Position numbers and translations under genes: made by a program. DNA of 28,019 nt from contig CAYJTI010000002.1 of assembly GCA_964373135.1 (NCBI GenBank), forward strand, positions 1-28,019, in the 5' to 3' direction. The stretch comes from an uncultured bacterium (GTDB lineage Bacteria; Omnitrophota; Omnitrophia; Omnitrophales; JACQLI01). Under the pieces are notes generated by a model. That model ran no database searches. It was given only the letters and a program-made list of their open reading frames with translations, and was not told the origin of the DNA. Of this stretch, positions 3,436 to 25,140 are shown one piece after another; within the stretch, counting starts at the first letter, position 1; each line of letters begins with the position of its first letter.

Positions 3436-4841
3436 CGCGGACTTCGAATGAGGGTCACAAGGGCCTCGGCCGTGACGGCGCGGCCTTCCCCTTCCGGACC
3501 CAAGCCCTCCATCGTTTTCGCCTTCACAGAGACCGCTTCCGCTTCCAGTCCGAGGAGGAGGGCGAGCCGCCTCCGGATGAGCTTTTTGTAAGGGCCGAGG
3601 CGGGGCTTCTCCAAAAGAATGACTGAATCAATCCGAGAAGGGAGATGATTTCTCCGGCGGACCTCTTTAAGAACCGCCCGCAGAATTTTTTCACTTCGAA
3701 TATTTTTATGACGGGGGTCCCGGTCCGAAAACCATTCGCCGATATCGCCGGCGCCAATCGCCCCGAGGAGGGCGTCGCTTGCGGCGTGCAAGAGGACGTC
3801 TCCATCCGAATGACCCAGCGCCCCTTTCTCAAACGGGATTCGAACGCCTCCGAGATAAAGTTTTCGCCCCTCGACAAGCCGGTGCGTGTCCCGCCCAAAC
3901 CCCACACAGAACCGGTTCTCTGGTACCGGTTCTGCCGTACCGGTTCTGCCGTACCGGTTCTGCGGTACCGGTTCTGCTGGAACCGGTTCGCGACGGTACC
4001 GGTTCTGCTGTACCGGTTCTGCGGTACCGGTTCTGCGGTACCGGTTCTGCCGTACCGGTTCTGCCGTACCGGTTCTGCCGTACCGGTTCTGCGGTACCGG
4101 TTCTGCTGGAACCGGTTCGCGAGAACCGGTTCGCGAGAACCGGTTCCGATATTCCGCTTCAGCCAGCCGGAGGTCTGAGGATGTGGTGACCTTGAGATTC
4201 AATCCGGAATAGGAAAAAATTTTCACTTTAGCTCCGATGTTTTCCAAAAGCGAGGCCTCATCCGTGGCCGCCAAGGCGCCCGGATGAATTCGGTAAGCCT
4301 TGAGCAAGGTGGAGCGGCGCACAAGCTGGGGTGTTTCGGCCTCGTAGAGATGGGTTCGGTCCACTGTCCCAAGTACTCGGCCATTTCCCGGCGCCACCTG
4401 CTTCAAGGTCGGCACCACGGGACGGGCGAGAATCACGCCCTCAGCCTCCCCCCGTTTTTTCAGAAGAGAGAGGACCGCCGCTTTGGGGGGGAAAGGACGG
4501 GCGCCGTCGTGGACGAGGACCCAGTCCAGTCTCGGAGAGGCTCGGCGGAGAGCGTTCTTCACGGATTCCGCTCGGGTGGCACCGCCCCGGACTAAGTGAA
4601 CCGGAGGGCCTGAGAATCCCCGAAGGATTTCCTTCCTCACCCAGGGCTCGGTCCCGGGCGCAACGGCGAGGAGAATTTCCCGGACCTCAGGGATTCCTTG
4701 AAAAGATTCTAAGGTGTGACGAAGGAGGGGCTTTCCTCCCAGGGGCTCGAAAAGTTTACTCAGGCGGTGTTTCGGCCGGGTCCCTTTATTCCAGAATCGC
4801 CTTCCGGAGCCTCCTCCCGCAATAATTAGGCTAACTCCCAT
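3432..4841 (-). CDS. ispDF: Bifunctional IspD/IspF (MEP cytidylyltransferase + MEcPP synthase) with an ~80-aa repeat-derived linker
   Basis: IspD: LIIAGGGSGRRF, VLVHDGARP, ETPQ, NLKVTT..DL. IspF: VGFGRDTH, GHSDGDVLLHA..DALLGA, VSVKAKT. One continuous frame. The start is set at ATG 4841; the track's extra 45 aa translate a REP hairpin. Confidence 0.93.
   Translation of the reverse strand: MGVSLIIAGGGSGRRFWNKGTRPKHRLSKLFEPLGGKPLLRHTLESFQGIPEVREILLAVAPGTEPWVRKEILRGFSGPPVHLVRGGATRAESVKNALRRASPRLDWVLVHDGARPFPPKAAVLSLLKKRGEAEGVILARPVVPTLKQVAPGNGRVLGTVDRTHLYEAETPQLVRRSTLLKAYRIHPGALAATDEASLLENIGAKVKIFSYSGLNLKVTTSSDLRLAEAEYRNRFSRTGSREPVPAEPVPQNRYGRTGTAEPVRQNRYRRTGTAEPVQQNRYRREPVPAEPVPQNRYGRTGTAEPVPENRFCVGFGRDTHRLVEGRKLYLGGVRIPFEKGALGHSDGDVLLHAASDALLGAIGAGDIGEWFSDRDPRHKNIRSEKILRAVLKEVRRRNHLPSRIDSVILLEKPRLGPYKKLIRRRLALLLGLEAEAVSVKAKTMEGLGPEGEGRAVTAEALVTLIRSPR
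3909..4146. repeat. Tandem array of 17 ACCGGT-core units, period 14 bp (consensus GGTACCGGTTCTGC), in frame inside ispDF
   Basis: ACCGGT cores counted at 3911, 3925, 3939, 3953, 3967, 3982, 3998, 4012, 4026, 4040, 4054, 4068, 4082, 4096, 4111, 4125 and 4139 (13 gaps of 14, 2 of 15, 1 of 16; total 228 bp = 76 codons). Confidence 0.97.
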
Positions 4842-4872
4842 TCCAATGGCGCATCGTCCTTTCTGAATACGC

Positions 4873-4979
4873 CGTTTGACAAATGCGTATCCGGTTTCAA
4901 CCCCCTCACCCTCCCCTCTCCCCCTCTGGGGGAAAGGGTTAAGGGTGAGGGGGAAATCGGGGGCGGAATTTGTCAAACG
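4873..4979. repeat. REP-like hairpin (CCCCTCACCC family, 4901-4953) enclosed by a perfect 12-bp inverted repeat
   Basis: Inner arms CCCCCTCACCCT (4901-4912) / AGGGTGAGGGGG (4942-4953). Outer arms CGTTTGACAAAT (4873-4884) / ATTTGTCAAACG (4968-4979). Intergenic, between the PIN/TRAM gene and ispDF. Confidence 0.85.
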
Positions 4980-4984
4980 CCCTA

Positions 4985-6001
4985 CTAACGACGTCCTGAG
5001 TCTTCGTCCGCGGGCTTCGCAAAAATCATCCGGCCCGCCTGGGTCTGGAGGACACTCGTAATCATCACATTAATGGTCTGGCCGATTCGCCGCCGGCCGT
5101 TGTCCACGACCACCATCGTCCCGTCATCCAAATAGGCCACGCCCTGGTCGTGCTCCTTCCCTTCCTTGAGAACCTTCACCTGCATCGTCTCGCCGGGAAT
5201 CACCACGGGCTTCAGGGCATTGGCGAGCTCGTTGATATTGAGGACCTTCACCCCTTGAAGCTCGGCGACTTTGTTGAGGTTGTAGTCATTGGTGAAAACC
5301 TTGGCATTCACGGCCTGCGCCATCTTCACGAGCTTTGCGTCGACCGTGGAGAGTTCGGGAAAGTCCATCTCCTGGATTCTCACTTCGATGTGCGGATTCC
5401 CTTTGATTCGGTTGAGGATGTCGAGCCCCCGGCGGCCCCGGTTCCGCTTGAGGGGGTCGGCCGAATCGGCAATCAGCTGAAGTTCCTTCAGGACGAACCG
5501 GGGAAGGACGAGACGGCCGCTCAAGAAATGCGCTTCGGCAATGTCTGCAATCCTCCCGTCGATAATGACGCTTGTGTCAAGAAGGATAAGCTCCTCGCCG
5601 GGACTTTTGCTCTCGAGCTTCACGAAGGGAATCAGAAGATTAAACTCTTCCTGTCCCCGGAGGATGGTCACCGCGCCGAGGTAACTGAACATCACGGCCG
5701 AAAGAACCCCGAGCTGATGCAGGCTCTCCTCGGGCATCTGGACATACTCGGCCACCCCCATGAAGAGCCGGTTGACGATAAGCCCCAGGCCAATCCCGAC
5801 CAGAATCGAAAGGATATTGCGGACGGTGTAGCGCTTAAAGAAGTAGTCGATGAGGACGACGAGGGCCGAAAAAAAGAGTCCGACTCCCGCGCCAATCCAC
5901 TTTCCCTGAGGCAGTTCGTAAGGGAAAAACCACTGGAAATGCGAAACATAACCGTAGAGGGTAAACAAACCGACAAAAAGAATTCTCAACATTAGAATCA
6001 T
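4985..6001 (-). CDS. yacL: YacL-family membrane protein with PIN and TRAM domains
   Basis: Four hydrophobic N-terminal segments, PIN motifs ILLDTSVIIDGRI and FTNDYNLNKVA, and TRAM segment VLKEGKEHDQGVAYLDDGTMVVV. SD AAGGAG lies 8 nt before ATG 6001. Its position before ispD matches B. subtilis yacL. Confidence 0.93.
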   Translation of the reverse strand: MILMLRILFVGLFTLYGYVSHFQWFFPYELPQGKWIGAGVGLFFSALVVLIDYFFKRYTVRNILSILVGIGLGLIVNRLFMGVAEYVQMPEESLHQLGVLSAVMFSYLGAVTILRGQEEFNLLIPFVKLESKSPGEELILLDTSVIIDGRIADIAEAHFLSGRLVLPRFVLKELQLIADSADPLKRNRGRRGLDILNRIKGNPHIEVRIQEMDFPELSTVDAKLVKMAQAVNAKVFTNDYNLNKVAELQGVKVLNINELANALKPVVIPGETMQVKVLKEGKEHDQGVAYLDDGTMVVVDNGRRRIGQTINVMITSVLQTQAGRMIFAKPADEDSGRR

Positions 6002-6027
6002 GGTCATCACTCCTTTTTATGATTGGA

Positions 6028-6096
6028 AAACTGTCCCCCCGGTACCGGTTCTCCGAGAACCGGTACCGGAGAACCGGTTCGCGAGAACCGGTACCG
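6028..6096. repeat. Intergenic cluster of ACCGGT-core repeats including a perfect 15-bp-arm hairpin
   Basis: Cores at 6044, 6059, 6073 and 6087. CCGGTACCGGTTCTC-C-GAGAACCGGTACCGG at 6039-6069. AAACTGTCCCC (6028-6038) is the reverse complement of 22666-22676. Confidence 0.92.
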
Positions 6097-6102
6097 AGAA
6101 TG

Positions 6103-6918
6103 TTAAACAAAGGGAACAACGGGAACCCCTTTCTTCCCCTTTTCGTCATCCCGCTTCAGAAGCCGCCAGGGATGGGTCTTAATCTCCCGAACAAAATCGC
6201 GCATCTCTTGATAAAGATCTTCCTCCACCACCAGACTCCCCACGGTCCCCTCTCCTTTTTCAATTTTCCCGAGAATGGTCTCCAGAGACCCGGCCGAGGC
6301 GTTGAGGTGTTTCAAGCTCTCCGTCAAATCCTTTTCGGACCCCGACAAGATTTGATTGAGGGAACGGGTCAAGCTCGCAAAGTTCGTAAGCGAGTCCCGG
6401 AGGGCGGTTTCGGTTTCCTTATCCTCAAGGGCCCGCTTCACCCGTTTCAGGATGGCTTCCAAGTGACTCGCAATCTCGTCGGCCCGAGTGATGAGTTCCT
6501 CCATCGGGACCGGGTTGGCCCCCCGGACCGTGTCGCCATCCCTGAGAAATCGGCCTTTTCCCGGCCGGGGGGTGATTTCAATATGAGGCTCGCTTAAGAT
6601 ATGCGTTCCTCGAATGCTGAGTGTGTAATTTTCCCTAATTTCATAACCCTTTGCAATGAAAAGTTGCACGTGAACCTCGGCCTGGCCCGTCTCGGGGTCC
6701 TCTTTGAGGGTGACCTTGCTGACCTCCCCGAGCCGGACCCCCGCCATCCGGACCGGCGCTCCCCGGTCGAGAATGCTCACATAATTGAAAATCACGTTCA
6801 CCTGATAGCCCGGCCGAAATAGGTAGACGCCGCTCACAAAAAACACCACCACCGAAAGCAGGATGAATCCGAAAATCACAAATGCCCCGACCCACACCTC
6901 ATTCCGTCTTCTCTTCAT
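6103..6918 (-). CDS. mlaD: MlaD/MCE-domain protein with a helical C-terminal extension
   Basis: N-terminal TM (VWVGAFVIFGFILL), MCE motif LDRGAPVRMAGVRLGEV, then a long heptad-like helical region. SD GGGAG upstream. Confidence 0.9.
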   Translation of the reverse strand: MKRRRNEVWVGAFVIFGFILLSVVVFFVSGVYLFRPGYQVNVIFNYVSILDRGAPVRMAGVRLGEVSKVTLKEDPETGQAEVHVQLFIAKGYEIRENYTLSIRGTHILSEPHIEITPRPGKGRFLRDGDTVRGANPVPMEELITRADEIASHLEAILKRVKRALEDKETETALRDSLTNFASLTRSLNQILSGSEKDLTESLKHLNASAGSLETILGKIEKGEGTVGSLVVEEDLYQEMRDFVREIKTHPWRLLKRDDEKGKKGVPVVPFV

Positions 6919-6939
6919 CCAGGCTCCCTTTCTCCGATT

Positions 6940-7683
6940 TCAGTCGGTAATCGGTCCCGTCGCCGACCCGGTGATGAACTGACGAATGATTGGATTCGCC
7001 GTGTTCTTAATCTCCTCGGGGGTGCCGGTCCCGATAATTTTCCCCTCGTAGAGCATCGCAATCCGGCTCGCCATCTTGTAGGCGCTTTTCATGTCGTGCG
7101 TCACCGCCACGCTCGTGACCCGGAGTTTTTGGTGCATCTCCACAATGAGGTCATTAATCCCGTCCGCCATAATCGGGTCGAGCCCGGTCGTCGGCTCATC
7201 ATAAAGAATAATTTTAGGATCGTAACAGATTGCCCGCGCCAAGCCAACCCGCTTCTTCATCCCCCCCGAAAGGGCCGCCGGCATCAAATCCCCGATTCCC
7301 GCCAGGCCCACAAGCCCCAATTTTTCCTGGACCTTCTCCCGCACCACCTCCGCGGGGAGCGTCGTATGTTCATCAAGGGAGAACCCGACATTCTCCCGGA
7401 CCGTCAGCGAATCAAAAAGCGCCGCCCCTTGAAAAAGCATCCCGAGTTTGAGGCGGAATTGGTCGAGCTCCCGCTCCGTGAGCGAAAAAATATCGACGCC
7501 GTCAATCACCACCGTCCCCTCGTCCGGCTGCATAATCCCCATGAGGTGTTTCAACAAAACACTTTTCCCGCATCCGGACCGGCCGATGATGACCAAGGTC
7601 TCCCCCGTCCGGATTTCAAGGTCGACGCCCCGGAGGACGTCATTCGCGCCGAAACTTTTGTGGAGCCCCTTGACCTCAATCAT
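6940..7683 (-). CDS. mlaF: MlaF-type ABC ATPase
   Basis: Walker A GRSGCGKS, FQGAALFDSLTVRENV, signature LSGGMKKR, Walker B ILYDEPT and H-loop VTHD. It sits between mlaE and mlaD. ATG at 7683. Confidence 0.93.
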   Translation of the reverse strand: MIEVKGLHKSFGANDVLRGVDLEIRTGETLVIIGRSGCGKSVLLKHLMGIMQPDEGTVVIDGVDIFSLTERELDQFRLKLGMLFQGAALFDSLTVRENVGFSLDEHTTLPAEVVREKVQEKLGLVGLAGIGDLMPAALSGGMKKRVGLARAICYDPKIILYDEPTTGLDPIMADGINDLIVEMHQKLRVTSVAVTHDMKSAYKMASRIAMLYEGKIIGTGTPEEIKNTANPIIRQFITGSATGPITD

Positions 7684-7690
7684 TAGAACC

Positions 7691-7721
7691 AAAAGGTGCC
7701 AGGCACTTTTCAGGTGCCTGG
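7691..7721. repeat. GGTGCC/GGCAC REP-like overlapping hairpins in the mlaE-mlaF gap
   Basis: AAAAGGTGCCAGGCACTTTTCAGGTGCCTGG. Stem CCAGGCAC (7699-7706) / GTGCCTGG (7714-7721), with an alternative imperfect palindrome at 7691-7710. Confidence 0.7.
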
Positions 7722-7740
7722 TCCCTGTTCACCTCCATCA

Positions 7741-8556
7741 TTAAAAGAAGTAGAAGACGGCGGTAAAGAAACAGTCGAGGGTGATGATTAAAATGAGCGC
7801 CACCACCACCGCCGTAGTGGTGGAACGGCCCACCCCCTCCGCGCCCCCCTCGGTCCGGAATCCGAAATAACAGCCGACAATCGTAATCACCGTCCCAAAA
7901 ACAAACGCCTTAATGAGGCCGGTCATCACATCCTTAATCATCAAGATTTCGATGCTTCGCTCAATGTATTGGTGCGAGCTAATCCCTAACTTGAAAACCG
8001 CCACAAAATAGCCGCCGAGCATCCCGATGCAGTCGGCATAGATGGTGAGAAAAAAAAGCATGAAGAACCCGGCGACGAGCCGGGGAACGACCAAATACCG
8101 GACCGGGTCCGTGGCGAGAGACCGAAGCGCGTCAATCTGTTCAGTGACCTTCATCGTTCCAATCTCCGCGGCAATCGAAGCGCCGACCCGCCCCGCGACC
8201 ACCATCGCCGTCAAAACCGGCCCCAACTCGCGCGTCATGTAAAGCGCCTCCAGGTTCGACGTGAACTGCTCCTCCGCAAAGTGGCGCAACTGGTAAGCCG
8301 ATTGCAGGGCGAGAACCATCCCCGTGAAAAGTGCCGTGAGAAAAACAAGCGGGAGGGAGGTCACCCCAATCCGAGTCATCTGCTCGAGCGTGTATTCCCA
8401 ACGAAGCCTGGTGGTAAAAAGCGTCGCCACGGCATCGCGAAGCAGGAGGGTAATCCCGCCGGCGTGGTAGGCGAAATCCAAAGAGTGCCGGCCGAACTCT
8501 CCGAGCCACGACCGAACCGAAACAATCCGTCGCAAGGTTTCTAATCGCTGGTCCAT
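7741..8556 (-). CDS. mlaE: MlaE-type ABC permease
   Basis: RELGPVLTAMVVAGRVGASIAAEIGTMKVTEQIDALRSLATDPVRYLVVPR and GGAEGVGRSTT are MlaE-family signatures. Confidence 0.95.
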   Translation of the reverse strand: MDQRLETLRRIVSVRSWLGEFGRHSLDFAYHAGGITLLLRDAVATLFTTRLRWEYTLEQMTRIGVTSLPLVFLTALFTGMVLALQSAYQLRHFAEEQFTSNLEALYMTRELGPVLTAMVVAGRVGASIAAEIGTMKVTEQIDALRSLATDPVRYLVVPRLVAGFFMLFFLTIYADCIGMLGGYFVAVFKLGISSHQYIERSIEILMIKDVMTGLIKAFVFGTVITIVGCYFGFRTEGGAEGVGRSTTTAVVVALILIITLDCFFTAVFYFF

Positions 8557-8560
8557 GGCT

Positions 8561-10462
8561 TTAGAACTTCACCTTCGGGCCCAAGAGGGCGTGCGTTTCG
8601 GCCTCGCCTTCCTTCTGAGAATCTCCACCGGCCCCCATCTCAAGCCCCATCGTCATTCGCTGGCCGAGCGGCTTCTCCGCCTGAATCGCCGACTCCCCTT
8701 CTTTCCACCCCACATTCATCCCTCTCCAAATCACGAGATGGTCCGGACCTTTGATTCGAATCCCGTGAAATACATTCGCGAGAGAAAGGTCAATCGCCCC
8801 GGTCATCTTCAAGGTATTCCGCCCCCTGAGAATCTTCGAGTCGTAGAGCTTGAGGTAGGGCGGAAAGCCCCGAAATTTTAAAATGGCCTGGTCAAAGTCG
8901 AGTTTTTCAAGCGTCCCCTCTTCAATCGTGAAATATCCCTCGACATCCGGCCGGTTGAGTTCCCCCCGGAGTTTCAGTTTTCCTTGGAGTCTTCCCGACA
9001 AGTTCGACGGGAGCGGGCGGCCGCCAAAATCTTGGACGGTTTCCAAGGGAAATCCCTCGACCCGAAGGACCAAATCCTTGCGGGGCTCAGACCCCTTGAA
9101 AAGAATTCGTCCGTCCAGGTGAAACACCTCGCCCCAATCGCAATCGATTTCGTGAATCCCTTCCCGGCTGAGCTCAAAGGTGCCGTGAAAATCATGAAAC
9201 GGCTCATACTCCATAATCAGAGTGTCAGTTTTCACGGTTCCCCGGAAACGGGCCGGGGCGTGCCGGGACGCCTTGGGAAGCGGAACAAGCTGAGCCTCTC
9301 CCGAGACGACCCAGTCGAGATTCGCCACTGAGACGTGCTCGAGCGCGAACTGTGTCTTGAATCCGAGCTCGCTCAGATTCGAATGAATCTCAAAACGGCG
9401 GCGCTCCCGATGGAACTGGGCCTCATAATTTCCATTCGAACGGTCCACCACCCCCCGGCCGGTGTAACCCCGGGGCAGGGCGAGGTTCAAAAAATGAATC
9501 TTCGGGCCTTCTTGAAGAACCGTCCCCGTGAAGGGGTAGCTCTTGCCCCGCCAGCCCAACGAGCCTCCGAGCTTTCTTTTCGCGAAATCGGCCTGAACCG
9601 AAAAACGTAACGTCCCCTCCCGGCTCTCCTGCCTCATCTCCAAATCCGCTCGCGGCTCCCCCTGCCATTCTTCAATCTTTCCCTTCCACTCCACCTCCCA
9701 GTCGTGGAAAAGGCTCGTCAGGCCCCGAGTCTGAATCACCCGGTCGCTCAAGGAGACCTCTCCCTTCATCGACTTCATGGGGATTCCGCTCGCCGCCAGA
9801 AAACTCACTCCCTCAAGCGACGCCTCAAGCTCGTAATGCTCAAACGGAAGGTCCGTGGTCCCCCGCAATTTTATTTCTCCCTCCGCGACGCCCGCCAGTT
9901 TGGCGCTCAATCTCACCTCAACCCGGCCCTTTGGATTCAACTTGGCCTTGAATTGAACGCCTGAAAGTTTGAGTTCCTCTCCCCCCTCTCCCCACGGATA
10001 ACGAAGCTCGCCCTGTCGAATGACGAGTTCGGCCGGAACCCGCGGGGCCGAGGCGAAGGCCGAATCGAGGAAGGGGAGCGGCTTCCGAGGGCTTTGAAAA
10101 CGAAGCATCGGGGCTTCGAGGACAATCCGGGAAGGGACCTTGAAATCACCCCGGATAAGATTCACCAGACCGTAGCCAAAGACGAGCCGCTTGAGCTCAA
10201 GTATCGAAACCGCCTGTCCGGCGGCGGAGTGGATTTCAATCCCTTCAAAAACGATTTGAGAGAGGGCGCCCAGCCGAATGGCTTTGATTTTGACCGGGGC
10301 CTTGAAAATCTCACTCGCCCGGGCCTCGGCAAACTCTTTAAAGGGCGTCCGGCTCAGGCGGGCTTGGGCAAATTGCAAGGCTCCCCAGTAGAGGAACAGG
10401 CCGAGCAGAAGAAGGAGGGAAACCAGCCGGCCCCGCCCGAGGCCCTCATGAGGCTTTCTCAA
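8561..10462 (-). CDS. AsmA/TamB-like membrane-anchored beta-rich protein (putative bridge-like lipid transfer protein)
   Basis: A single N-terminal hydrophobic anchor (RLVSLLLLLGLFLYWGAL), then ~600 aa of alternating beta-strand pattern (e.g. LSGRLQGKLKLRGELNRPDVEGYFTIEEG), ending in ..GPKVKF. Start placed at TTG 10462 with GGAGAG 10 nt upstream. The family call is by pattern only. Confidence 0.6.
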   Translation of the reverse strand: MRKPHEGLGRGRLVSLLLLLGLFLYWGALQFAQARLSRTPFKEFAEARASEIFKAPVKIKAIRLGALSQIVFEGIEIHSAAGQAVSILELKRLVFGYGLVNLIRGDFKVPSRIVLEAPMLRFQSPRKPLPFLDSAFASAPRVPAELVIRQGELRYPWGEGGEELKLSGVQFKAKLNPKGRVEVRLSAKLAGVAEGEIKLRGTTDLPFEHYELEASLEGVSFLAASGIPMKSMKGEVSLSDRVIQTRGLTSLFHDWEVEWKGKIEEWQGEPRADLEMRQESREGTLRFSVQADFAKRKLGGSLGWRGKSYPFTGTVLQEGPKIHFLNLALPRGYTGRGVVDRSNGNYEAQFHRERRRFEIHSNLSELGFKTQFALEHVSVANLDWVVSGEAQLVPLPKASRHAPARFRGTVKTDTLIMEYEPFHDFHGTFELSREGIHEIDCDWGEVFHLDGRILFKGSEPRKDLVLRVEGFPLETVQDFGGRPLPSNLSGRLQGKLKLRGELNRPDVEGYFTIEEGTLEKLDFDQAILKFRGFPPYLKLYDSKILRGRNTLKMTGAIDLSLANVFHGIRIKGPDHLVIWRGMNVGWKEGESAIQAEKPLGQRMTMGLEMGAGGDSQKEGEAETHALLGPKVKF

Positions 10463-12902: not shown

Positions 12903-12916
12903 GGAATTCTCTCTGG

Positions 12917-13981: not shown

Positions 13982-13984
13982 GCG

Positions 13985-14506: not shown

Positions 14507-14534
14507 TGTTCTTACCCTGCCAATCGACTGCTCA

Positions 14535-14564: not shown

Positions 14565-14593
14565 AGCTACCCGCCCAGGCCTGGCCCCGGGGT

Positions 14594-15472: not shown

Positions 15473-15492
15473 TCAGAATTTCTCCTCTAAGT

Positions 15493-16185: not shown

Positions 16186-17482
16186 AACGAAGGGCCTCCA
16201 CCGGATTGAGGCTGGCGGCCCGCTGGGCGGGATAAATCCCGGCCAGAATCGCCGTCAGGAGCGCCAGGGTCACAATGGTCGTCACATCCAAAAAGTTAAT
16301 CTCGGTCGGAATCCGGTCCAGGTAATAGATGTCGCTCGGGAAGACAGCGAGTCCGGTTGTCTCTTCCAGAAAATCCGCAATCGGATTCAAATTCCAGGCG
16401 GTGACAAGCCCCAAGATCGAGCCGAGAATCACCCCGAAGACCCCCACGCTGAATCCCTCCAACACAAAGATCTTTCGAACGCCGGCGCGCGTCGCCCCAA
16501 GCGCCCGCAGGATTCCAATATCCTTCGTCTTTTCCATGACGACCATAATCAAGGTGGACGAGATGTTGAAGGCCGCCACGAGCACAATCAGCGCGAGGAG
16601 AATGGTCATGACGTTTTTCTCCACCTGGAGCGCCGCAAAAAAGTTTCGATTCATGTCGACCCACGAACGGACCCAGTAATCGGCCCCCAGCTCAAACTGA
16701 AAAAATGACTTGAGCTCCTCGGCCTGGTCCACGTCCTTAAACCGCACACTGAGCCCGGTCACCCGGTTTCCCAAATGATAAAGGCGCTGTGCCTCCTCCA
16801 GGCTCACGAGCGCAAGCCCCGTGTCAAAATCGTTCATCCCGAGCCGAAAGATGCCCGCCACCCGGAAGGTCTTCGCCTCCGCCTCCTCCAGCGAAAAGGG
16901 CTTCCCCTCCTCCGCAAAGGGCGCAATGAGGGAGACCCGGTCATTCGGACCGACCCCCAAAATCTGGGCCAAGGGTTCTCCCAACACAATCGAGGGAACC
17001 ATCTGGCGTTCTGTTTTCTTAAAGAGGCCGAAGAAGCGCCGTTTGACTTGGACCTCCTCAATCGGCTCAAAATCAAGGACCCCCCAACGAAGACTCTCGC
17101 CAAAAATGGTGAGGTCCTCCCGGAAACGGTCAATCCCTTTGACAAGGACGCCCGTCGCATTCTCGGCCGAGCGAAGAATCGCCTGGCCCTGAACAAAGGC
17201 CGAAACATTTTCCATTTCGGCCTCCTTCCAAGAATGAATCTTTGCCATCACCGCCTCGGGGTCTTCCACGCCTCCTTCTCTTTCAATCCGGAGGTGGGGA
17301 TGAACGTTGACGATTTTCTCCTTGAGCTCCCGGTCAAACCCGCTCATGACGGCGAGGACCACAATGAGCGCCATGACCCCCACCGCCACGCCCAAAATCG
17401 AAATCAATGAAATGAGCGAAATAAACCCCGTCTTTCTCCGCCGGGTTAAATGTTTGAAGGCAATCCAGGATTCGTAATTCAT
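16178..17482 (-). CDS. lolC/E: LolC/LolE-family lipoprotein-releasing ABC permease
   Basis: GVAVGVMALIVVLAVMSGF TM1, a large periplasmic domain, VMEKTKDIGILRALGA, and C-terminal [18 protein letters not shown]. LolC and LolE cannot be distinguished by eye. Confidence 0.9.
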   Translation of the reverse strand: MNYESWIAFKHLTRRRKTGFISLISLISILGVAVGVMALIVVLAVMSGFDRELKEKIVNVHPHLRIEREGGVEDPEAVMAKIHSWKEAEMENVSAFVQGQAILRSAENATGVLVKGIDRFREDLTIFGESLRWGVLDFEPIEEVQVKRRFFGLFKKTERQMVPSIVLGEPLAQILGVGPNDRVSLIAPFAEEGKPFSLEEAEAKTFRVAGIFRLGMNDFDTGLALVSLEEAQRLYHLGNRVTGLSVRFKDVDQAEELKSFFQFELGADYWVRSWVDMNRNFFAALQVEKNVMTILLALIVLVAAFNISSTLIMVVMEKTKDIGILRALGATRAGVRKIFVLEGFSVGVFGVILGSILGLVTAWNLNPIADFLEETTGLAVFPSDIYYLDRIPTEINFLDVTTIVTLALLTAILAGIYPAQRAASLNPVEALRYE

Positions 17483-18906
17483 GCAGGCCTCAGCTGAGGA
17501 AAGAAAATGACCTCTCGGATGGACGGGCGGTTTGTGAGAATCATGACGAGCCGGTCGATTCCGATTCCCAGGCCGCCGGCCGGCGGCATGGCATATTCCA
17601 GGGCCGTGAGGAAATCTTCGTCCACCTGCTTATTGCCTCCGATAATCTCCGCCTGATTTTCAAGGCGTTCACGCTGAATCACCGGGTCATTCAATTCCGA
17701 AAAGGCGTTCGCGATTTCCATTTTTCCAATGTAAAGTTCGAACCGGTAGACGAGCTCTGGGTTTCCCTCCTTCGGTTTGGCCAAGGGCGTCAGGGCCGCC
17801 GGGTAGTCCACCACAAACGTCGGGTCCCAAAGCTCGGGCTCGACAACGTGGCCGAAGACGATATTCAGGACGTCCATCGCTTCGTCTGCCGGGTCAAATT
17901 CGATGCCGAGCCGTTTCGCCTCCTTTTTGATGTCGGCCTTCCGCCAGTCAACTTTTGTTTTCTCCCGAAGCGCCTCGTAAAAAGAGACTCGCCTCCAGGG
18001 CCTCTTGAAACGGACCGGCCGGTCCCCGTAGGTCAATTCGTCCCGGCCGTGAATCTTCTCCACCAAATTCGCCAGGAGCTCTTCCGTCAACGCCATCATA
18101 TCGGAATCATCGGCATAAGCCTGGTAGAGTTCGAGCATCGTGAATTCGGGGTTGTGCCGGACCGAAATCCCCTCGTTCCGGAAATTCCGGTTAATCTCAT
18201 AGATTTTCTCCAGGCCGCCCACGAGGAGCCGCTTGAGGTAAAGCTCCGGGGCGACCCTGAGGTAAAGGTCCAGATCGAGCGTTTCATGGTGCGTGGCAAA
18301 GGGACGGGCCCGGGCGCCGCCCGGAATCGGCTGCATCATCGGGGTTTCCACTTCGAGAAAACCCCGGCCGTCCAGAAACTGGCGAATCTCCCGGACAATC
18401 CGGCTTCGTTTGAGAAAGGCGTCCCGGACTTCTTCATTGACCAGTAAATCGACCGAGCGGTTTCGGTAACGGATTTCAACATCCTTGAGCCCGTGCCACT
18501 TTTCGGGGAGGACCCGGAGGATTTTCGAAAGGAGGGTGAAGGTCTCAATTCGAATCGTCCGCTCCCCCATCTTGGAGGTAAAAAGCGGCCCCTCCAATCC
18601 AATGATATCTCCCAGGTCTAAACTGAGAAACCTTTCATACTCCTTGGCCCCCAGAACCTCTTCTTTGGCGTAGAGCTGAATCTTACCGCTTCCATCTTTG
18701 AGGTCCGAGAAGGTGCTTTTCCCGTGGCTTCGCCGGGCCATGAGCCGCCCCGCCACCCGGACCTTTCGTCCTTCTTCGAACCGGCTCAAAATTCCTTCCA
18801 GCGGCTCCACCGGCAGAAATCGTCCGCCATACGGAGCCCTCCCCTCCTTGAGGTAGGCTTCGCGCTTCGCTTTCCTTTCTCGGAACAGCTCTGATTCCTC
18901 GCTCAT
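17479..18906 (-). CDS. lysS: Lysine--tRNA ligase (class II)
   Basis: OB anticodon domain (VAGRLMARRSHGK), LPEKWHGL, YLRVAPELYLKRL, FRNEG, EFTMLELY and GLGIGIDRL. The start is ATG 18906; the track's 41-aa extension translates the leader repeats. Confidence 0.98.
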   Translation of the reverse strand: MSEESELFRERKAKREAYLKEGRAPYGGRFLPVEPLEGILSRFEEGRKVRVAGRLMARRSHGKSTFSDLKDGSGKIQLYAKEEVLGAKEYERFLSLDLGDIIGLEGPLFTSKMGERTIRIETFTLLSKILRVLPEKWHGLKDVEIRYRNRSVDLLVNEEVRDAFLKRSRIVREIRQFLDGRGFLEVETPMMQPIPGGARARPFATHHETLDLDLYLRVAPELYLKRLLVGGLEKIYEINRNFRNEGISVRHNPEFTMLELYQAYADDSDMMALTEELLANLVEKIHGRDELTYGDRPVRFKRPWRRVSFYEALREKTKVDWRKADIKKEAKRLGIEFDPADEAMDVLNIVFGHVVEPELWDPTFVVDYPAALTPLAKPKEGNPELVYRFELYIGKMEIANAFSELNDPVIQRERLENQAEIIGGNKQVDEDFLTALEYAMPPAGGLGIGIDRLVMILTNRPSIREVIFFPQLRPA

Positions 18907-18940
18907 TCGTAAAATGCGTAAAATGGAATTTTTTCCGACT

Positions 18941-19127
18941 TGAGTTTGGCACTTTTTCAAATCATCCCTTCTCCCCCCAAGGGGGGAGAAGGTAAGGATG
19001 AGGGGGGTCGATTCTCGAAGTCCCCTCACCCTAACCCTCTCCCAGAGGGAGAGGGTAAATCAGAATTGGCTCCAATTTCTTTTCTCCCCTCCCTCTCAGA
19101 GGGAAGAGGGAAAAACTGCCAAACTCA
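18941..19127. repeat. 187-bp MITE/BIME-like element: three REP-like hairpins enclosed by 17-bp inverted repeats
   Basis: TGAGTTTGGCACTTTTT (18941-18957) vs AAAAACTGCCAAACTCA (19111-19127), 16/17 complementary. Inner hairpins at 18967-18992, 19034-19056 (within CCCCTCACCCTAACCCTCTCCC) and ~19082-19110. Confidence 0.85.
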
Positions 19128-19133
19128 GGTTTT

Positions 19134-21500
19134 CTAACTTAAACGGCTGATTATAGATGAGGCGGTTTGGGGTGTCAAAGTTTCTTTGGAAAGTTTGGAA
19201 AGTGCCCCAAACAGAGGGGCCTTCCCGAAGGGCTTGAGGAGAATCAGGATGAGGGGGAGCAAAACCAGGGTGCAGACGAGGGCGAAAAAGATGGTGAGGC
19301 TCGTCAAGAGGCCAAAATAAATCGTGGGACGAAAGCTTGCGAAGACGCTCGAGGCGAAGCCGAAGACCAAAATCAGAGTGGCCACGACGAGGGCCTGACC
19401 CACATTTCGGTAGGTGTGGTGCAGGGCCTGAAGGTAGTGGTGCCGATGGTCAAATTCGAAACGAAACCGGTAAAGAAAATGGACCGAGGCATCGACCACC
19501 AGGCCGAGGGCGACGCTCGAAATCATCGCCGTCGTCGTCGAAAGTTCTATCCCCGCCCAGCCCATGAGCCCGTAAAGGCCGAGAATCGGAAATAAGTTTG
19601 GGACGGCCGCAAGAAGTCCCATCATGAAGGAGCGGAAGAAGAAGGCGATGAGCGCCAAAATCAAGAAAAAGGTGAAGCCGAGGCTCTGGAGCTGATTGGT
19701 GACCAGCCGCTCGGCCATCTGACCCAGGAGGACGACGCTTCCCGTGAGACGGATTCGATACTCATCGCCAAAATTTTCTCTCACGTAACTCCAAATCTTT
19801 TCCTCCCTGACCCGCCCCTTTTCGGTGCCGATGGCCTTCATCCGGCCCTCGAGCGAGAGCCGGCGGAAATCCCGGGAAATAAAACTCCAAAAGTCCGGGT
19901 TGTTGGACTCTGCCATCTTCTCAAGGTAAGTTTGAAGGGTTTCCTCGTCTTCGGGAATGGCAAAGGCGGCCGCCTCTCCCTCTCTCGCTTCGTGAACCTT
20001 TTTGACCAGGAGCGGGAGGGAGTTCACCTTCGTGATTTCAGGCATTGCTTCCATAAATTGCGCAAAGGCATCGACCTTCTTCATCGTTTCGACGGTCACC
20101 ATCGGCCCCCGGTCTTTGCGCTCAATCGAAATCCCGAGCGAATAGACCCCGGCGAGGCGCTGGTCGATGAAACGGGTGGCGACGGCCAAGGCCGAGTCAG
20201 GACGGAGGTCACGAACCAGATTGGTGTCTATCCGGATTCTGGGGAGGCCGACGACCGCAAGAATCAAAAGAAGGGCGGCAATCGCCAGAAGAATCCACTT
20301 CAGGTGGAATTCAATCCGCTCGAGCGCGTAAACGATGATGCGGTTAAAGAAATGCTGCTCGCCCTCGGCCCGCCAATCCCCTTTCAACGGAAGGATGGGG
20401 AGAAGGAGAGGGGTCAGGACCATCGTAATGAGATACGAGTAAGAGGTCCCAATCGCAGCCGCCACGCCAAAGCTTTGGACCGCCGGGACCCGGTTGAGAC
20501 AGAGCGACAAAAATCCGGCCACGGTCGTAGCCGCCGCCAGGAAACAAGGAATCCCCAAGTGCTGAAGCGTGAGGCAAATGCACTCCCTCAAACTCGGGTG
20601 GTGCGGCCTCAGCTCACAAAAAAGATTAATGAGATGGACAACGCTCGTCACCGTCACAATCATCACCACAGGACCCAAAAGAGAATTGACCAGATTGAGC
20701 GGCCTTCCCATGAGGGAGACGGTCCCAAAGGTCCAAACGAGGGTGACAAAAACAACCGACATCGCCACAACGACGCTCGCCCCGTTCCGGTAAATCAGGA
20801 AGGTCGCCAGAATCAGAAAAAGCGCGACGGCGGGGATGAAGAAGGCCTGGTCTCTTTGAATCGAGTCGGTCAGGTCGTACTGCTCCACCGGCGAACCGGC
20901 CACATAAAAACGGACCCCCCGCCAGGAGAAGGACTTCAAGGTCCGGCGAAGCTCGCCAATGTAACCTTGAAGAAAGTTCGGGTCCTTCGGTTTGGCCCGG
21001 AGGCGTAAAAGGATGGCCCCCACCTTCCCGTCCCGGGAAACAAGGTTTCCTTGAATCAAGGGGTGGCGCAGGGCCTCTTCGCGAAATTCCTGAATCGATT
21101 TCTCCCCCTCGAAGACCCCCGAAATCAGGGGTTCGATCTTCACGCCGAAAATCTTGTGCCGGATGTCTAAGGCATTCGTCACGCTCACCACCCGGTCCAC
21201 CCGCCGGTCAGAGGCGAGGAGGCGTGTCAAGACATGTGTCAGGCGGAGGTTTGTGAGCGTGAGATAATCGGAGGTCTCAATCGCCACGGCCACCAAATGG
21301 TCGCTCCCGAAATTTTCCTTGAACTCCTGATAAAAGCGGTACTCGGGGGTGGTCTTCGTGAAAAGGGTTTCCGTGGAGGGGTCGATTCTGAGCGAGGTCG
21401 CCTCATAGCCAAAGAAAAGGGTGGCGAGGATGAAGGCCAAGAGAAGGGGCCAACGTAGGACGAATACCAAAACGGCGAATTTTCTGAACCCCTGACTCAC
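19134..21500 (-). CDS. MMPL/RND-family transporter
   Basis: 788 aa with the duplicated RND topology (1 TM, periplasmic domain, 5 TM, twice) and ALGLVVDASVHF in the second half. GTG start. Confidence 0.88.
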   Translation of the reverse strand: MSQGFRKFAVLVFVLRWPLLLAFILATLFFGYEATSLRIDPSTETLFTKTTPEYRFYQEFKENFGSDHLVAVAIETSDYLTLTNLRLTHVLTRLLASDRRVDRVVSVTNALDIRHKIFGVKIEPLISGVFEGEKSIQEFREEALRHPLIQGNLVSRDGKVGAILLRLRAKPKDPNFLQGYIGELRRTLKSFSWRGVRFYVAGSPVEQYDLTDSIQRDQAFFIPAVALFLILATFLIYRNGASVVVAMSVVFVTLVWTFGTVSLMGRPLNLVNSLLGPVVMIVTVTSVVHLINLFCELRPHHPSLRECICLTLQHLGIPCFLAAATTVAGFLSLCLNRVPAVQSFGVAAAIGTSYSYLITMVLTPLLLPILPLKGDWRAEGEQHFFNRIIVYALERIEFHLKWILLAIAALLLILAVVGLPRIRIDTNLVRDLRPDSALAVATRFIDQRLAGVYSLGISIERKDRGPMVTVETMKKVDAFAQFMEAMPEITKVNSLPLLVKKVHEAREGEAAAFAIPEDEETLQTYLEKMAESNNPDFWSFISRDFRRLSLEGRMKAIGTEKGRVREEKIWSYVRENFGDEYRIRLTGSVVLLGQMAERLVTNQLQSLGFTFFLILALIAFFFRSFMMGLLAAVPNLFPILGLYGLMGWAGIELSTTTAMISSVALGLVVDASVHFLYRFRFEFDHRHHYLQALHHTYRNVGQALVVATLILVFGFASSVFASFRPTIYFGLLTSLTIFFALVCTLVLLPLILILLKPFGKAPLFGALSKLSKETLTPQTASSIISRLS
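19150..19178 (-). promoter_or_regulatory. Perfect-consensus sigma70 promoter for the lysS operon, embedded in the MMPL gene's last codons
   Basis: Minus strand TTGACA (19178-19173), 17 bp spacer, TATAAT (19155-19150). Confidence 0.8.
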
Positions 21501-21524
21501 TTTGTGTTACTTTATTCTCCTTAA

Positions 21525-22637
21525 ATGTTAAGCGTCTGCCTAGCGTTATTTTATTCGGCTGTGGCCCTCGTCTGGCTCACCCGAGCGGGACGGGCCCTCC
21601 GCTTCCTCCGGAAATGTCCTGAAGTCCTTCCCTCGCAGGCTTCGCAAGACCCGCTTCCCCGAGTCTCGGTCCTCCTCCCGGTTAAAAATGAGGAGGTCAA
21701 TATCGAGGCGTGGCTCGCCCGTCTTTTGGCCCAGGATTCTCCCGCCGATGAAATTATCGTCACCAACGACCATTCCACTGACCGGACTCCGGAAATCCTG
21801 GCTCACTTCGAACGCCTGAATCCCGGCCGGCTTAAGCTCCTCGAGGCGCCGGCGGTCCCGGAGGGGTGGACGGGAAAAAATTGGGCCTTGGCCCAAGGCG
21901 AGCGGGAGGCCCAGGGGGAGTGGTTTCTTTTTACCGACGCCGACACCCGCTTTGAGCCCTTCACGATTTCGAGTGCCGTCCGTCATGCGGAAGCAAGGCG
22001 GCTTGATTTCCTCACCCTCTCGCCCCGCTGCCTCGTGGAAGGCTTTTGGGAAAAGTTACTCGAGCCCTTTGCGATGGCTTTTTTCGGACTCTGGTTTCCC
22101 CTGGAAAAGGCGAATGAACCCGATTCGACCGCCGTCTTTGGAAACGGACAGTACCTGATGATACTGAAGTGGCTTTGCCAGAAAATCGGCGGCCACGAGA
22201 AGGTGAAGGGAAGTTATTTGGAAGACTTCGCGCTCGCGAGGGAAGCCAAAAAGGCCGGCGCCCGGGTCGAGTGTGCGAGGGGGACGAAAATTTTCGGGAC
22301 CCGGATGTATCGCTCCTTTTCAGGAATCTGGCTGGGGTGGCGGCGAATCTTTCTTCATGCGTTTGACAAGAATGCCGTTCGTCTCGGGGCGAAGGCGGGG
22401 CTCCTCTTCCTATTTTCCTTTCTTCCCTTCGCCCTGTTTCCCTGGCTGGCTCCCTCGCCGCTTGCGGCGATTCCCGTCTTCGCCCTGATTTTTATCACAA
22501 GCGCCCGGGCCTATGCCCTCGTCGGAGCGCCCCAAGCTTATGCGCTCCTCCACCCCCTCGCCGGGCTCCTCCTGGGCGGAATCCTCCTCGATGCCGCCTC
22601 ACTCGCCCTCCGAAAAAAAGAAGTGACGTGGCGTTAG
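21525..22637 (+). CDS. Membrane-bound GT2 glycosyltransferase (HpnB/CruC/CrtQ-like lipid glycosyltransferase group)
   Basis: VSVLLPVKNEE, NDHSTDRT, GWTGKNWA, LFTDAD (DxD), GNGQY, LEDFAL, RMY, plus N- and C-terminal TM segments. Confidence 0.88.
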   Translation: MLSVCLALFYSAVALVWLTRAGRALRFLRKCPEVLPSQASQDPLPRVSVLLPVKNEEVNIEAWLARLLAQDSPADEIIVTNDHSTDRTPEILAHFERLNPGRLKLLEAPAVPEGWTGKNWALAQGEREAQGEWFLFTDADTRFEPFTISSAVRHAEARRLDFLTLSPRCLVEGFWEKLLEPFAMAFFGLWFPLEKANEPDSTAVFGNGQYLMILKWLCQKIGGHEKVKGSYLEDFALAREAKKAGARVECARGTKIFGTRMYRSFSGIWLGWRRIFLHAFDKNAVRLGAKAGLLFLFSFLPFALFPWLAPSPLAAIPVFALIFITSARAYALVGAPQAYALLHPLAGLLLGGILLDAASLALRKKEVTWR

Positions 22638-22712
22638 GTACCGGTTCTGCCGAACCGGTTCTGCAGGGGACAGTTTACAAATTTGTAAAGTGTCCCCTGC
22701 AGAACCGGTACC
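22638..22712. repeat. ACCGGT-family palindrome (56 bp, one mismatched pair) with a duplicated left arm, between convergent genes
   Basis: ACCGGTTCTGCAGGGGACA-G-TTTACAAATTTGTAAA-G-TGTCCCCTGCAGAACCGGT at 22654-22709, with an extra arm GGTACCGGTTCTGC at 22638-22651. Confidence 0.93.
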
Positions 22713-22715
22713 GAA

Positions 22716-23810
22716 TTAGAGGAGGATGTAGCCCGCCTCGATGGCGTAACGGACGATTTTTTTCAGGAATGCAAGGTCGGTATTCGGGAAGCGGATGGAA
22801 GTGTCTCGGAGAAACGTGCGGGTATTCGTGACATCGAAGGTGAGGGAATTTCCCAGGTAGCCCAGATAAGGCTGAATTTTAGAAAAAATTTCCCGCTCCA
22901 CGGCATCCAGCTTCTCCAGGGAAAATTTCTCGGGGTCAATCACCTCCACCGGCGAAGAGATTCCAAATTCCTCTTTCACCTGGAGGAGCATTTCCAAGGT
23001 GGGCGGATTTTCCGTGACGAGATGAAAGGTCCGGCCCTGGCTGTCCGAACGCCCGGAGAGCGCGAACGCCGCCTCGACGACAAAATCCATCGGCACCAAA
23101 TTGAAGGAATTTTCAAGCCGGGAAGGGACCTTTTTCAAAAGGCCGTGCGCAAAAAGGCGCCAAAAGGGATAAATGACGTTGAACTCACTCACCGCGCCCC
23201 GCTCCGAATCCCCCACGACAATGCTCGGCCGGAAAATCATCGCCGGAAGCCCCTCGGCCAACGCTTCGCGGACCCTTTTCTCGGCCAGATACTTCGTTGC
23301 CTCGTAATGATTGGCAAAGGCGGGCTCCGAGGGAAGCTCATCCTCGAGCGAGTGAAGGGGCGTAAAACTGCCCGCCACATAGGCCGTGCTGAAATAAATG
23401 AAACGCTCAAACGGCCCCCGCTCTTTCATCTCCCAGGCCGCTTCGAGCGCGTGACTCGTCCCTTGAAAATTAATCCGCTCGGCCGCCTCCCACTCGGCCC
23501 CCAGGTTGGTCAAGGCCGCGATGTGATAAAAGTCATGCGTGTGGGCGGTCACGAAATTCCAATCCGTCGTGCTGAGCCCGAGCCTCGGCTCGGTCACATC
23601 CCCCGCCAAAACCCGGATTCGGTCTTTCCCTTTTCCATTGACCCCGAGCTGGCTCAAGAGCCTTTCGGCCCGGGCCTCGTGGGAGTCCCCATTTTTCGAC
23701 CGGACGAGGAGGACGAGTCCGTGGCCGGTCCTTTCCAAAAAAACTCGGACCAACTCCCGTCCGATTCCCCCCGTGGCGCCGGTGAGAAAAACCGTCTTAC
23801 GCCCCATCAT
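22716..23810 (-). CDS. Extended SDR, fatty-acyl/thioester reductase-like (NAD_binding_4 type)
   Basis: FLTGATGGIG, LVLLVR, GDVTEPRLGL, YFSTAYVAG, YEATKY (YxxxK) and IFRPSIVVG. GGAG lies 5 nt before ATG 23810. Confidence 0.88.
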   Translation of the reverse strand: MMGRKTVFLTGATGGIGRELVRVFLERTGHGLVLLVRSKNGDSHEARAERLLSQLGVNGKGKDRIRVLAGDVTEPRLGLSTTDWNFVTAHTHDFYHIAALTNLGAEWEAAERINFQGTSHALEAAWEMKERGPFERFIYFSTAYVAGSFTPLHSLEDELPSEPAFANHYEATKYLAEKRVREALAEGLPAMIFRPSIVVGDSERGAVSEFNVIYPFWRLFAHGLLKKVPSRLENSFNLVPMDFVVEAAFALSGRSDSQGRTFHLVTENPPTLEMLLQVKEEFGISSPVEVIDPEKFSLEKLDAVEREIFSKIQPYLGYLGNSLTFDVTNTRTFLRDTSIRFPNTDLAFLKKIVRYAIEAGYILL

Positions 23811-25140
23811 ACCGCTCCACCACGAGACAAATATTCTGCCCGCCGAATCCAAACGAGTTGCTGAGAGCCCGGTCCACTTTCACCTCCCGGGCTTGATTCG
23901 GAACATAATCCAAGTCACACACGGGGTCCGGCTCTTCATAGTTAATGGTCGGTGGAATCACCCCGTCGCGCATGGCGAGGAGGCAGGCAATGAGTTCCGT
24001 GGCGCCTGCCCCCGCAATCATGTGGCCGACCATCGACTTAATGGAACTCACCGGGATGTCGTAGGCCTTTTCTCCAAACACCCGTTTGATGGCCAAGGTC
24101 TCGATGGAATCGTTCACGAGGGTGGCCGTGCCGTGGGCATTAATGTAGTCGATGTCGTTGGGTGAGAGGCCCGACTTCCGAAGCGCCTGCTCCATCGCCC
24201 GCTTCGCGCCGTCTCCCTCGGGGTCCATATCCGTGAGACGGAAGGCGTCGGCCGTAGAGCCATAACCGGCCACCTCCCCGTAAATCTTGGCTCCCCGCTT
24301 CCGGGCATGATTTAATTCTTCCAAGACCAAGACCGCCGCCCCTTCAGAGAGGACGAAGCCGTCACGGCGTTTATCGAAGGGGCGAGATGCGCGTTCCGGC
24401 GCTTCGTTTCGCCGGGAGAGGACCGTGAGCTGACTGAAGCCCGCAATCCCAAAGGGGTAAATCATGGAATGCGCTCCTCCCGTGAGAAGGATGTCGGCCT
24501 CCCCCCTCCGAATCCATTCACACGCCTCGCCAATCGCCTGACTCGATGCGGCGCAGGCTGTGAGACAACTTGAGACCGGCCCTTTAATCTTAAATTGTCC
24601 GGCCAAATGTCTCACGGTCATAAACGGCTGGATTTCAAGCTCCTGGTGCCCCGTGAGGAAATCCGAGCTTCTTGTGACGTAGCGGGCCGGGTCAACCAGT
24701 TTGCCGTTGTCTCCCCAGGCCGAACAGATGGTGGAAATGAAACCGTCGAGATTGAATCCCCAGTCCCCGGCGGCGAAATAAATCCCGACCCGCTCACTGG
24801 CTACCGGTTCCGAAGGTGCCACGTTCGCGAACGTGGCACCTTCGGAACCGGTACCGAGGCCGGCGTCCCGAAACGCCTCGTCCGCCGCCTGCAGGGCAAA
24901 AAAGGTTGAGCGGCCGGCCGATTTAATTTCAGGATTCCGCCCGCGCCAAAAATTGAAATCAAATCCCCGCACCTCGCCCGCAATCCGGACCGGAAACTCC
25001 TCCGCATTAAAGAGGGTAATGGGTCCGATGCCGGATTTGCCGGCAATCCAATTTTCCCAGTTTTCAGAAACCGTGAGGCCGAGCGGTGTCACCGCTCCCA
25101 AGCCGGTGACCACGACACGCCTGAGACCGTTACTCCCCAT
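23797..25140 (-). CDS. fabF: Beta-ketoacyl-ACP synthase (FabF-like, intact Cys-His-His)
   Basis: RRVVVTGLGAVTPLG, catalytic Cys in TACAASSQA, DGFVLSEGA, YINAHGTAT, KSMVGH and SNSFGFGGQN. Confidence 0.93.
   Translation of the reverse strand: MGSNGLRRVVVTGLGAVTPLGLTVSENWENWIAGKSGIGPITLFNAEEFPVRIAGEVRGFDFNFWRGRNPEIKSAGRSTFFALQAADEAFRDAGLGTGSEGATFANVAPSEPVASERVGIYFAAGDWGFNLDGFISTICSAWGDNGKLVDPARYVTRSSDFLTGHQELEIQPFMTVRHLAGQFKIKGPVSSCLTACAASSQAIGEACEWIRRGEADILLTGGAHSMIYPFGIAGFSQLTVLSRRNEAPERASRPFDKRRDGFVLSEGAAVLVLEELNHARKRGAKIYGEVAGYGSTADAFRLTDMDPEGDGAKRAMEQALRKSGLSPNDIDYINAHGTATLVNDSIETLAIKRVFGEKAYDIPVSSIKSMVGHMIAGAGATELIACLLAMRDGVIPPTINYEEPDPVCDLDYVPNQAREVKVDRALSNSFGFGGQNICLVVERYDGA
24802..24853. 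repeat. Perfect 52-bp palindrome with ACCGGT termini, in frame inside the ketosynthase
   Basis: TACCGGTTCCGAAGGTGCCACGTTCG|CGAACGTGGCACCTTCGGAACCGGTA; each half is the exact reverse complement of the other. Confidence 0.95.

Follow-up and report, generated by a model that had tools for sequence, protein, structure and literature searches.

A lineage-specific and probably selfish family of ACCGGT palindromic repeats in the gene gaps and reading frames of an Omnitrophota genome

Rickettsia palindromic elements (RPEs), reportedly introduced by Ogata et al. in 2000, are a point of reference for the repeats analyzed here, a family of palindromic elements with ACCGGT cores that occupies both gene gaps and coding frames in a 28,019-nt stretch of DNA (positions 1 to 28,019 of contig CAYJTI010000002.1, assembly GCA_964373135.1; hereafter the window) from an uncultured bacterium of the phylum Omnitrophota. 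The likeness is a functional analogy only, drawn from architecture and insertion behavior rather than from the sequences of RPE-1 to RPE-8. As in Rickettsia (reviewed in PMC10969869; see also PMC1166351), palindromes are inserted in frame in conserved housekeeping genes, at surface or linker sites, and are translated while the product is kept intact, in a small genome with no known transposase. However, RPEs are single units of about 100-150 bp instead of 14-bp modular arrays, the host phylum differs, and just about 10% of ACCGGT copies lie in genes.

Repetitive extragenic palindromic (REP) and REPIN sequences with their RAYT (REP-associated tyrosine transposase) genes (Bertels and Rainey 2011, PMC3116915; PMC3337134; PMC5581495) resemble the ACCGGT family in being short hairpin repeats of lineage-specific sequence, mainly extragenic and present in tens to hundreds of copies, in forming inverted doublets with a variable spacer, in making no target duplication, and perhaps in the company of a low-copy Y1/HUH transposase with the repeat motif in its flanks, a motif that would here be GGGGACAG and was seen in relatives. 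In contrast to these systems, ACCGGT arms are tandem 14-bp units with dedicated GGTACC ends, their length is quantized and extendable to long arrays, half of the copies have no REP-like center, many are translated, and the RAYT gene of this genome is frameshifted and without flanking ACCGGT arms. Bacterial MITEs, or miniature inverted-repeat transposable elements, such as the Correia elements (reviewed in PMC10969869), are comparable in their terminal inverted repeats (CGGTACCGGTTCT here, at 107/149 ends), small size, lack of autonomy and sharp boundaries, and in the occasional supply of stop codons or coding sequence; unlike MITEs, the ACCGGT family has no target-site duplication, and a parent insertion sequence with the same ends was not found in the 77%-complete assembly. 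Particular to this genome are the ACCGGT arm module, its quantized 14-bp growth and a long translated array. Our literature search found no paper with the ACCGGT motif or on such repeats in Omnitrophota, so that the word 'undescribed', used of the repeat in an initial annotation of the window, holds for the ACCGGT arms. We consider the family to be, probably, an inserted and selfish palindromic element, lineage-specific and non-autonomous, of the REP/REPIN-MITE kind.

The window contains 32 ACCGGT words where 5.88 +/- 2.44 are expected, a count that 0/100 shuffles reach. As initially counted, 26 of them (17 + 4 + 3 + 2) fall in four loci, given here together with the gene that carries the first:

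3909..4146, no strand assigned: array of 17 ACCGGT units with a period of 14, occasionally 15-16
3432..4841, minus strand: bifunctional IspD-IspF gene carrying the array, likely true start ATG at 4841
6041..6095, no strand assigned: hairpin-less 55-nt element with 4 cores and GGTACC at both termini
22637..22712, no strand assigned: full 76-nt element with 2 left units, a central GGGGACAG-loop-GTGTCCCC hairpin and 1 right unit
24800..24855, no strand assigned: near-perfect palindrome with ACCGGT arms and a AAGGTGCCAC center, in frame in a loop of a FabF-like ketosynthase

TRF describes the array (3911-4146) as 16.6 copies of a 14-nt period, within which an 83-nt block (3911-3993) recurs as 4040-4122 at 96% identity and an offset of 129 nt, a higher-order duplication; the unit number of this 238-nt array is a short-read estimate, none of the independent contigs seen having bridged it. 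A longer ispDF open reading frame (ORF), reaching 4976, overlaps another repeat upstream of the likely start. The element at 6041-6095 occupies the gap from the stop of an mlaD-like gene to the start of a PIN/TRAM gene and is immediately preceded by half of a GGGGACAG-type hairpin (AAACTGTCCCC, 6026-6038), and the element at 22637-22712 fits exactly between the stops of two convergent genes, its first G completing the upstream TAG stop. The palindrome in the FabF-like gene (23797-25140, minus strand) adds a net 13 aa. All four loci fold as strong hairpins when compared with shuffles (z of -7 to -11), and an Rfam scan of the window gave no matches. An independent unitig from another study bridges 6039-6096 with zero differences; this was the sole bridged locus in Logan contigs of four runs, in which unitigs were too short and broke inside elements. 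The arm GGTACCGGTTC, initially described as shared by all four loci, is present as stated in three, whereas in the fourth it is complete only when the end is moved 2 nt to 24855. The segments 3909-4146, 6039-6096 and 24802-24853 are free of stop codons in all six frames, and the intergenic copy at 22638-22712 has stops in 2/6 frames that come from its AT-rich loop; for the two in-gene copies and for 22638-22712 this is as the initial annotation had it.

The family extends well beyond the window. The host is a 1.42 Mb metagenome-assembled genome (MAG) of 196 contigs, 77% complete and with 1.6% contamination, in which the window is contig C2; the names of homologs assign it to Candidatus Omnitrophota. 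Clustering of ACCGGT cores yielded 78 multi-core loci, reduced by an extended-motif filter to 77 family loci. The genome-wide enrichment initially proposed as a check was found: GAACCGGTTC was counted 218 times and GGTACCGGTTC 126 times, where 5-8 and <1, respectively, would be expected, and family motifs are enriched at least 30-fold under Markov orders 1-4, which replaced a maximal-order expectation that was uninformative because its sub-words are themselves repeat-derived. Isolated extended motifs are not enriched (25/362 single cores, half of those being decayed elements); it is the element that multiplies and not the site.

A simple grammar describes the elements. They end in (C)GGTACCGGTTC(T), the full 13-bp inverted ends being CGGTACCGGTTCT; 107 of the 149 locus ends are of this GGTACC type, (C)GGTACCGGTTC, and beyond position -1 the sequence is random. 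Each arm consists of one to several 14-bp units, which are made of the 10-bp perfect palindrome GAACCGGTTC and a 4-nt spacer that reads TSSC on one arm and GSSA on the other. An optional central hairpin, GGGGACAG...CTGTCCCC, is present in about half of the copies, and the full center has the form TCT-NNN-GGGGACAS-TTT-loop-AAA-STGTCCCC-NNN-AGA, with n units on one side and m units on the other. The 26 complete central modules (GGGGACAS-loop-STGTCCCC) have hypervariable loops. Complete elements are quantized in length, measuring 27, 41 or 55 nt without the center, when they are inverted ACCGGT arms only, and 62-130 nt in 14-nt steps with it. They are also polar: in 13 vs 3 cases the multi-unit arm adjoins GGGGACAG and the single-unit arm adjoins GTGTCCCC, and in co-directional gaps the long arm is downstream relative to gene direction in 11 vs 3. 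Covariation as proof of a selected hairpin was unconvincing, paired positions being either invariant or marginally above shuffles.

Traces of copying and of growth are both visible. About nine near-identical copies form a subfamily that has the ACAAATTTGT loop; some of them share the variable triplet too, and they are found at unrelated loci, as recent copying predicts. The other copies have invariant cores and stems and are saturated with change in spacers and loops. On contig C20 of this genome, G000, a mutated unit, GAACCGGAT, is tandemly repeated beside intact units (G000:C20:10880-10915), which is direct evidence of arm growth by local duplication of neighboring units.

In agreement with the lineage specificity initially claimed, the paired-unit pattern, present 128 times here, does not occur once among 98 other genomes of the class, which include members of four other genera of its family. 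A scan of public genome_contigs for three cores at 14-nt spacing returned, among the matches listed, only unrelated 7- or 14-nt tandem repeats. A two-unit scan of metagenome_contigs returned, among the matches listed, an AT-rich dispersed element that belongs to another organism and lacks homology to this genome. That unrelated element starts with TAGTGATTTGACGTAGGAACCGGTTCC, carries three GGAACCGGTTC motifs (L151-L229, JGI, GC ~0.42-0.46) and recurs on well over 100 contigs, which come from a few related metagenome projects.

Sites that are filled in this genome and empty in relatives provide the historical evidence. The in-gene copies are as follows:

IspDF: ~78 aa exactly in the IspD-IspF linker; site empty in relatives, the fusion being common to the whole order
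FabF-like ketosynthase: net 13 aa; site empty in orthologs 74-80% identical
QueA: ~20 aa from a full element, central hairpin included; site empty in orthologs
Prephenate dehydrogenase: 11 aa between two domains; site empty in orthologs
Second ketosynthase: ~31 aa from a 7-unit array; site empty relative to a paralog
CusB/HlyD-like protein: 4-unit element with Pfam matches on both sides
RnfC-RnfD: element at the junction and a decayed one in the N-terminal region of RnfC; the nearest relative, G002, has neither

The site at 22637-22712 is likewise empty in G003 and G004, where the stop codons of the convergent genes abut. The comparison that the initial annotation had recommended thus gave five genes and one intergenic junction that are empty in family-level relatives, and it shows that copies entered many unrelated sites after the split from those relatives. 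We considered the array as the creator of the ispD-ispF fusion and rejected the idea; since the fusion is ancestral in the order, the array lengthened the linker and did not fuse the genes. RnfC and RnfD form one open frame here (G000:C20:8723-10801) and in G002 (C15:67240-69249); G003 and G004 have a separate gene for each. Part of the family may have a natural RnfCD fusion.

The genic share of the family is small. By a crude gene call, about 52 of the 77 loci are intergenic, most copies filling tiny gaps, with 36 loci in co-directional gaps and 8 each in convergent and divergent ones; 9 loci are genic, 6 of which were confirmed as family insertions, and 14 are at contig ends. Alignment or Pfam matches raise the in-gene insertions to at least 8, adding the decayed copy in the N-terminal region of RnfC and the copy in prephenate dehydrogenase, which the crude gene call had placed in a gap. 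Given that ~86% of the genome is coding, the low genic share indicates that in-gene insertions are strongly purged and that only in-frame copies at tolerant positions remain. Insertion edges are sharp. No target-site duplication was found in 39 complete elements, direct repeats of at least 3 nt at any offset not exceeding the shuffled expectation. A role as transcription terminators was rejected, the elements having no T-run and no 3'-end preference.

The effect on proteins follows from the unit. On either strand it is translated as EPV, NR(F/Y) and (R/G)TG(S/T) in three frames, and the 14-nt period takes the ispDF array through each of the three frames in turn; its minus-strand translation is a low-complexity linker of ~78 aa (EPV / NRY-NRF / TGT-TGS). 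In an AlphaFold2 model of IspDF both enzyme domains have pLDDT values of 80-95, and residues 237-309, the array product, have values of ~32 and no secondary structure; the insert is thus predicted to be disordered while both domains fold. The translated products of the family are disordered peptides rich in G, T, S, E, P, V, N, R and Y. At least 8 copies survive in frame within genes, since units are stop-free in any frame, net lengths are multiples of three and sites are linkers or surface loops. The initial annotation had described its two in-gene copies, the ~78-aa insert in the IspD-IspF linker and the net 13-aa insert in the FabF-like loop, as frame-preserving at a junction or loop, and this description applies to at least 8 copies in the genome. 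Its broader suggestion of a lineage-specific selfish repeat, similar to REP sequences or RPEs, that adds peptide segments to proteins is supported by enrichment, specificity, empty sites and in-frame copies.

What moves the elements is a separate matter. The window holds no mobilizing enzyme, as was first noted, and between neighboring ACCGGT loci no transposase was found anywhere in the assembly, all genes there being housekeeping genes. The initially recommended check for an enzyme flanked by the same repeats gave, on contig C151, a RAYT-like Y1 gene (C151:2928-3435; L030:1317-1827), read across a single frameshift and not flanked by ACCGGT arms. This gene scores 26.6 bits on PF01797 (Y1_Tnp), above the cut-off of 23, and its HUH motif (HFH) and downstream tyrosine region are intact; two GGGGACAGGCA motifs lie directly upstream, and the contig ends 100 nt downstream. 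The RAYT fragment had no recorded match in public assemblies. RAYT homologs occur in 70/99 genomes of the class, and GGGGACAS...STGTCCCC (GGGGACAG) hairpins in 73/99 compared to 0-1 for a control pattern. In 6/9 fetched relatives (G058, G060, G052, G097, G070, G059) an intact RAYT gene of ~200 aa is bracketed by inverted GGTGCC(A/T)GGCAC-N-GGGGACAGG in the classical RAYT-REP arrangement (repeats GGTGCCAGGCAC-N5-7-GGGGACAGG; L277, L279, L280, L282, L284, L285). Apparently, a class-wide and undescribed REP-RAYT system exists in Omnitrophota.

Both parts of the RAYT-flanking REP recur in the ACCGGT family. The GGGGACAG part is the center of full ACCGGT elements, where its stem has the G/G mismatch also seen in the genome's second repeat family (see below), and the AAGGTGCC part forms the center both of the palindrome in the FabF-like gene and of a hairpin at 7693-7730. 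Solely from these shared modules we infer that the ACCGGT family is tied to the RAYT/REP system. Spread would then be catalyzed in trans by the RAYT-type Y1 (HUH) tyrosine transposase of the genome, acting on single-stranded hairpin DNA, and arm length would change in 14-bp steps via slippage or unequal exchange, with the 17-unit ispDF array as the extreme. That a RAYT-type transposase moves the elements, the central hairpin being its REP motif, is a proposal we hold with slightly more doubt than belief. Rather doubtful, and offered as a tentative scenario, is that the vertically inherited class-wide system gained ACCGGT arms in one lineage and so became self-extending by 14-bp steps, with core enzymes (IspDF, Rnf, QueA, ketosynthases) receiving disordered linkers and loops from it; the element would write new protein segments in this way because its unit is stop-free in all six frames.

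Several observations weigh against these readings. The C151 gene reaches 70 bits on NF047646 (E 1e-19), below the equivalog cut-off of 80, its one-base frameshift falls just before the HUH motif (...CLMNTY / HFHLVV...) and marks either a pseudogene or an assembly error, and its upstream flank consists of GGGGACAGGCACC repeats and not of ACCGGT ends. About half of the elements have no GGGGACAG hairpin, and variable positions of the arms pair in 38/78 cases vs 31 expected, marginally above chance. The contrast of invariant cores with saturated spacers and loops is just as compatible with recognition of the cores by a host protein. Because the MAG is 77% complete and 14 loci are at contig ends, assembly may have missed an autonomous copy or another enzyme. 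No transposition event was observed directly, and filled and empty sites were compared across genera only, because a sister strain or species is lacking: among 5.8 billion proteins, the closest IspDF is ~65% identical.

Some of the same facts bear on a different mobile origin, which we judge unlikely: a selfish element moved by a non-RAYT enzyme, either the IS110-family transposase of contig C107 or one that is unassembled, for which GGGGACAG hairpins would be landing sites or passengers. The IS110-type ORF of C107 is intact (350 aa), this type makes no target duplication and its relatives target palindromes; half of the elements lack the GGGGACAG module, the RAYT gene is frameshifted and without flanking ACCGGT ends, and in a 77%-complete genome the true enzyme could have escaped assembly. 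However, the IS110 gene is not flanked by an ACCGGT terminus, only housekeeping genes and no transposase lie between neighboring ACCGGT loci, searches of the assembly for TnpB, DDE_Tnp_1, rve and DDE_3 gave nothing significant, and both halves of the RAYT-flanking REP serve as centers of ACCGGT-armed elements. Adjoining the IS110-family gene is a gene for a Y1-like protein of 300 aa, whose HUH motif is degenerate (SFH) and whose C-terminal tail resembles a helix-turn-helix (G000:C107:2160-3051 and 3111-4200).

An explanation by host function, in which a dimeric protein of the nucleoid, segregation or regulatory kind binds DNA at GAACCGGTTC, clusters are selected and in-gene copies are side effects, seems to us improbable. 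It would account for an invariant 10-bp perfect palindrome amid freely varying spacers and loops, for the regular 14-bp spacing of units and for their biased orientation relative to genes; it accords poorly with the lack of enrichment of isolated sites, with sites that occur only in bounded units with fixed GGTACC ends, with gaps that reveal no promoter or terminator preference (36 tandem, 8 convergent, 8 divergent), with relatives of the same gene content that have none, and with near-identical whole copies at unrelated loci. Local expansion of a hairpin-prone, microsatellite-like sequence, arising independently or by gene conversion and growing by slippage with no transposition, is more improbable still: unit number does vary by 14-bp steps, the ispDF array has its 129-nt internal duplication, and mutated units such as GAACCGGAT on C20 were amplified in tandem, but the same 13-bp ends and central module recur at 77 dispersed loci, orthologous sites have no seed sequence, and a 10-11-mer expected <1-8 times cannot arise independently ~200 times. 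It is scarcely credible that repeats were mis-joined in assembly or binning of a fragmented MAG (196 contigs, 14 loci at contig ends, an array exceeding typical read length), given that in-gene copies keep frame and join the correct halves of conserved proteins, that an independent unitig from another study spans 6039-6096 exactly, and that contamination is 1.6%.

As an inserted selfish element, the ACCGGT family would be a second case, independent of the first and unusually clean, in which essential enzymes contain translated palindromic selfish DNA, here in a phylum distant from Rickettsia, and if ACCGGT arms were indeed acquired by a RAYT/REP system, a live example of selfish hairpin DNA creating protein sequence outside that genus. 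Unlike RPEs, the family comes with a definite candidate for the enzyme, a RAYT that has its REP motif as the core of the element, and this makes the proposed mechanism testable. For Omnitrophota MAGs the practical consequences are that repeats break assemblies (14 loci at contig ends), push ORF calls upstream of true starts, and can mimic gene fusions or novel domains in annotation.

The genome has other repeat families. A second dispersed family, found genome-wide in G000, consists of an A-run and GGGGACAGG(C/T)... hairpin ...CCTGTCCCC followed by a T-run, and is often nested in the form GGGGACAGGCACC-TTTAA-GGGGACAGGCAAAAA-TGGGTGTCCCC-AAAAA-GGTGCCTGTCCCC; examples are window 7693-7730, C5:19818, C11:12599, C20:7018 and C151:2869-2900. 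Its interiors show compensatory changes, and it looks like a set of REP/REPIN sequences doubling as bidirectional terminators. A third hairpin family, rich in CCCCTCACCCT / CCCTCTCCC...GGGAGAGGG, is present in the window at 4880-4960 and 18990-19110. The upstream extension of the ispDF ORF call to 4976 is due to this family, whose translation matches ~40 other places in the genome and which yields dozens of loose contig ends in public runs.

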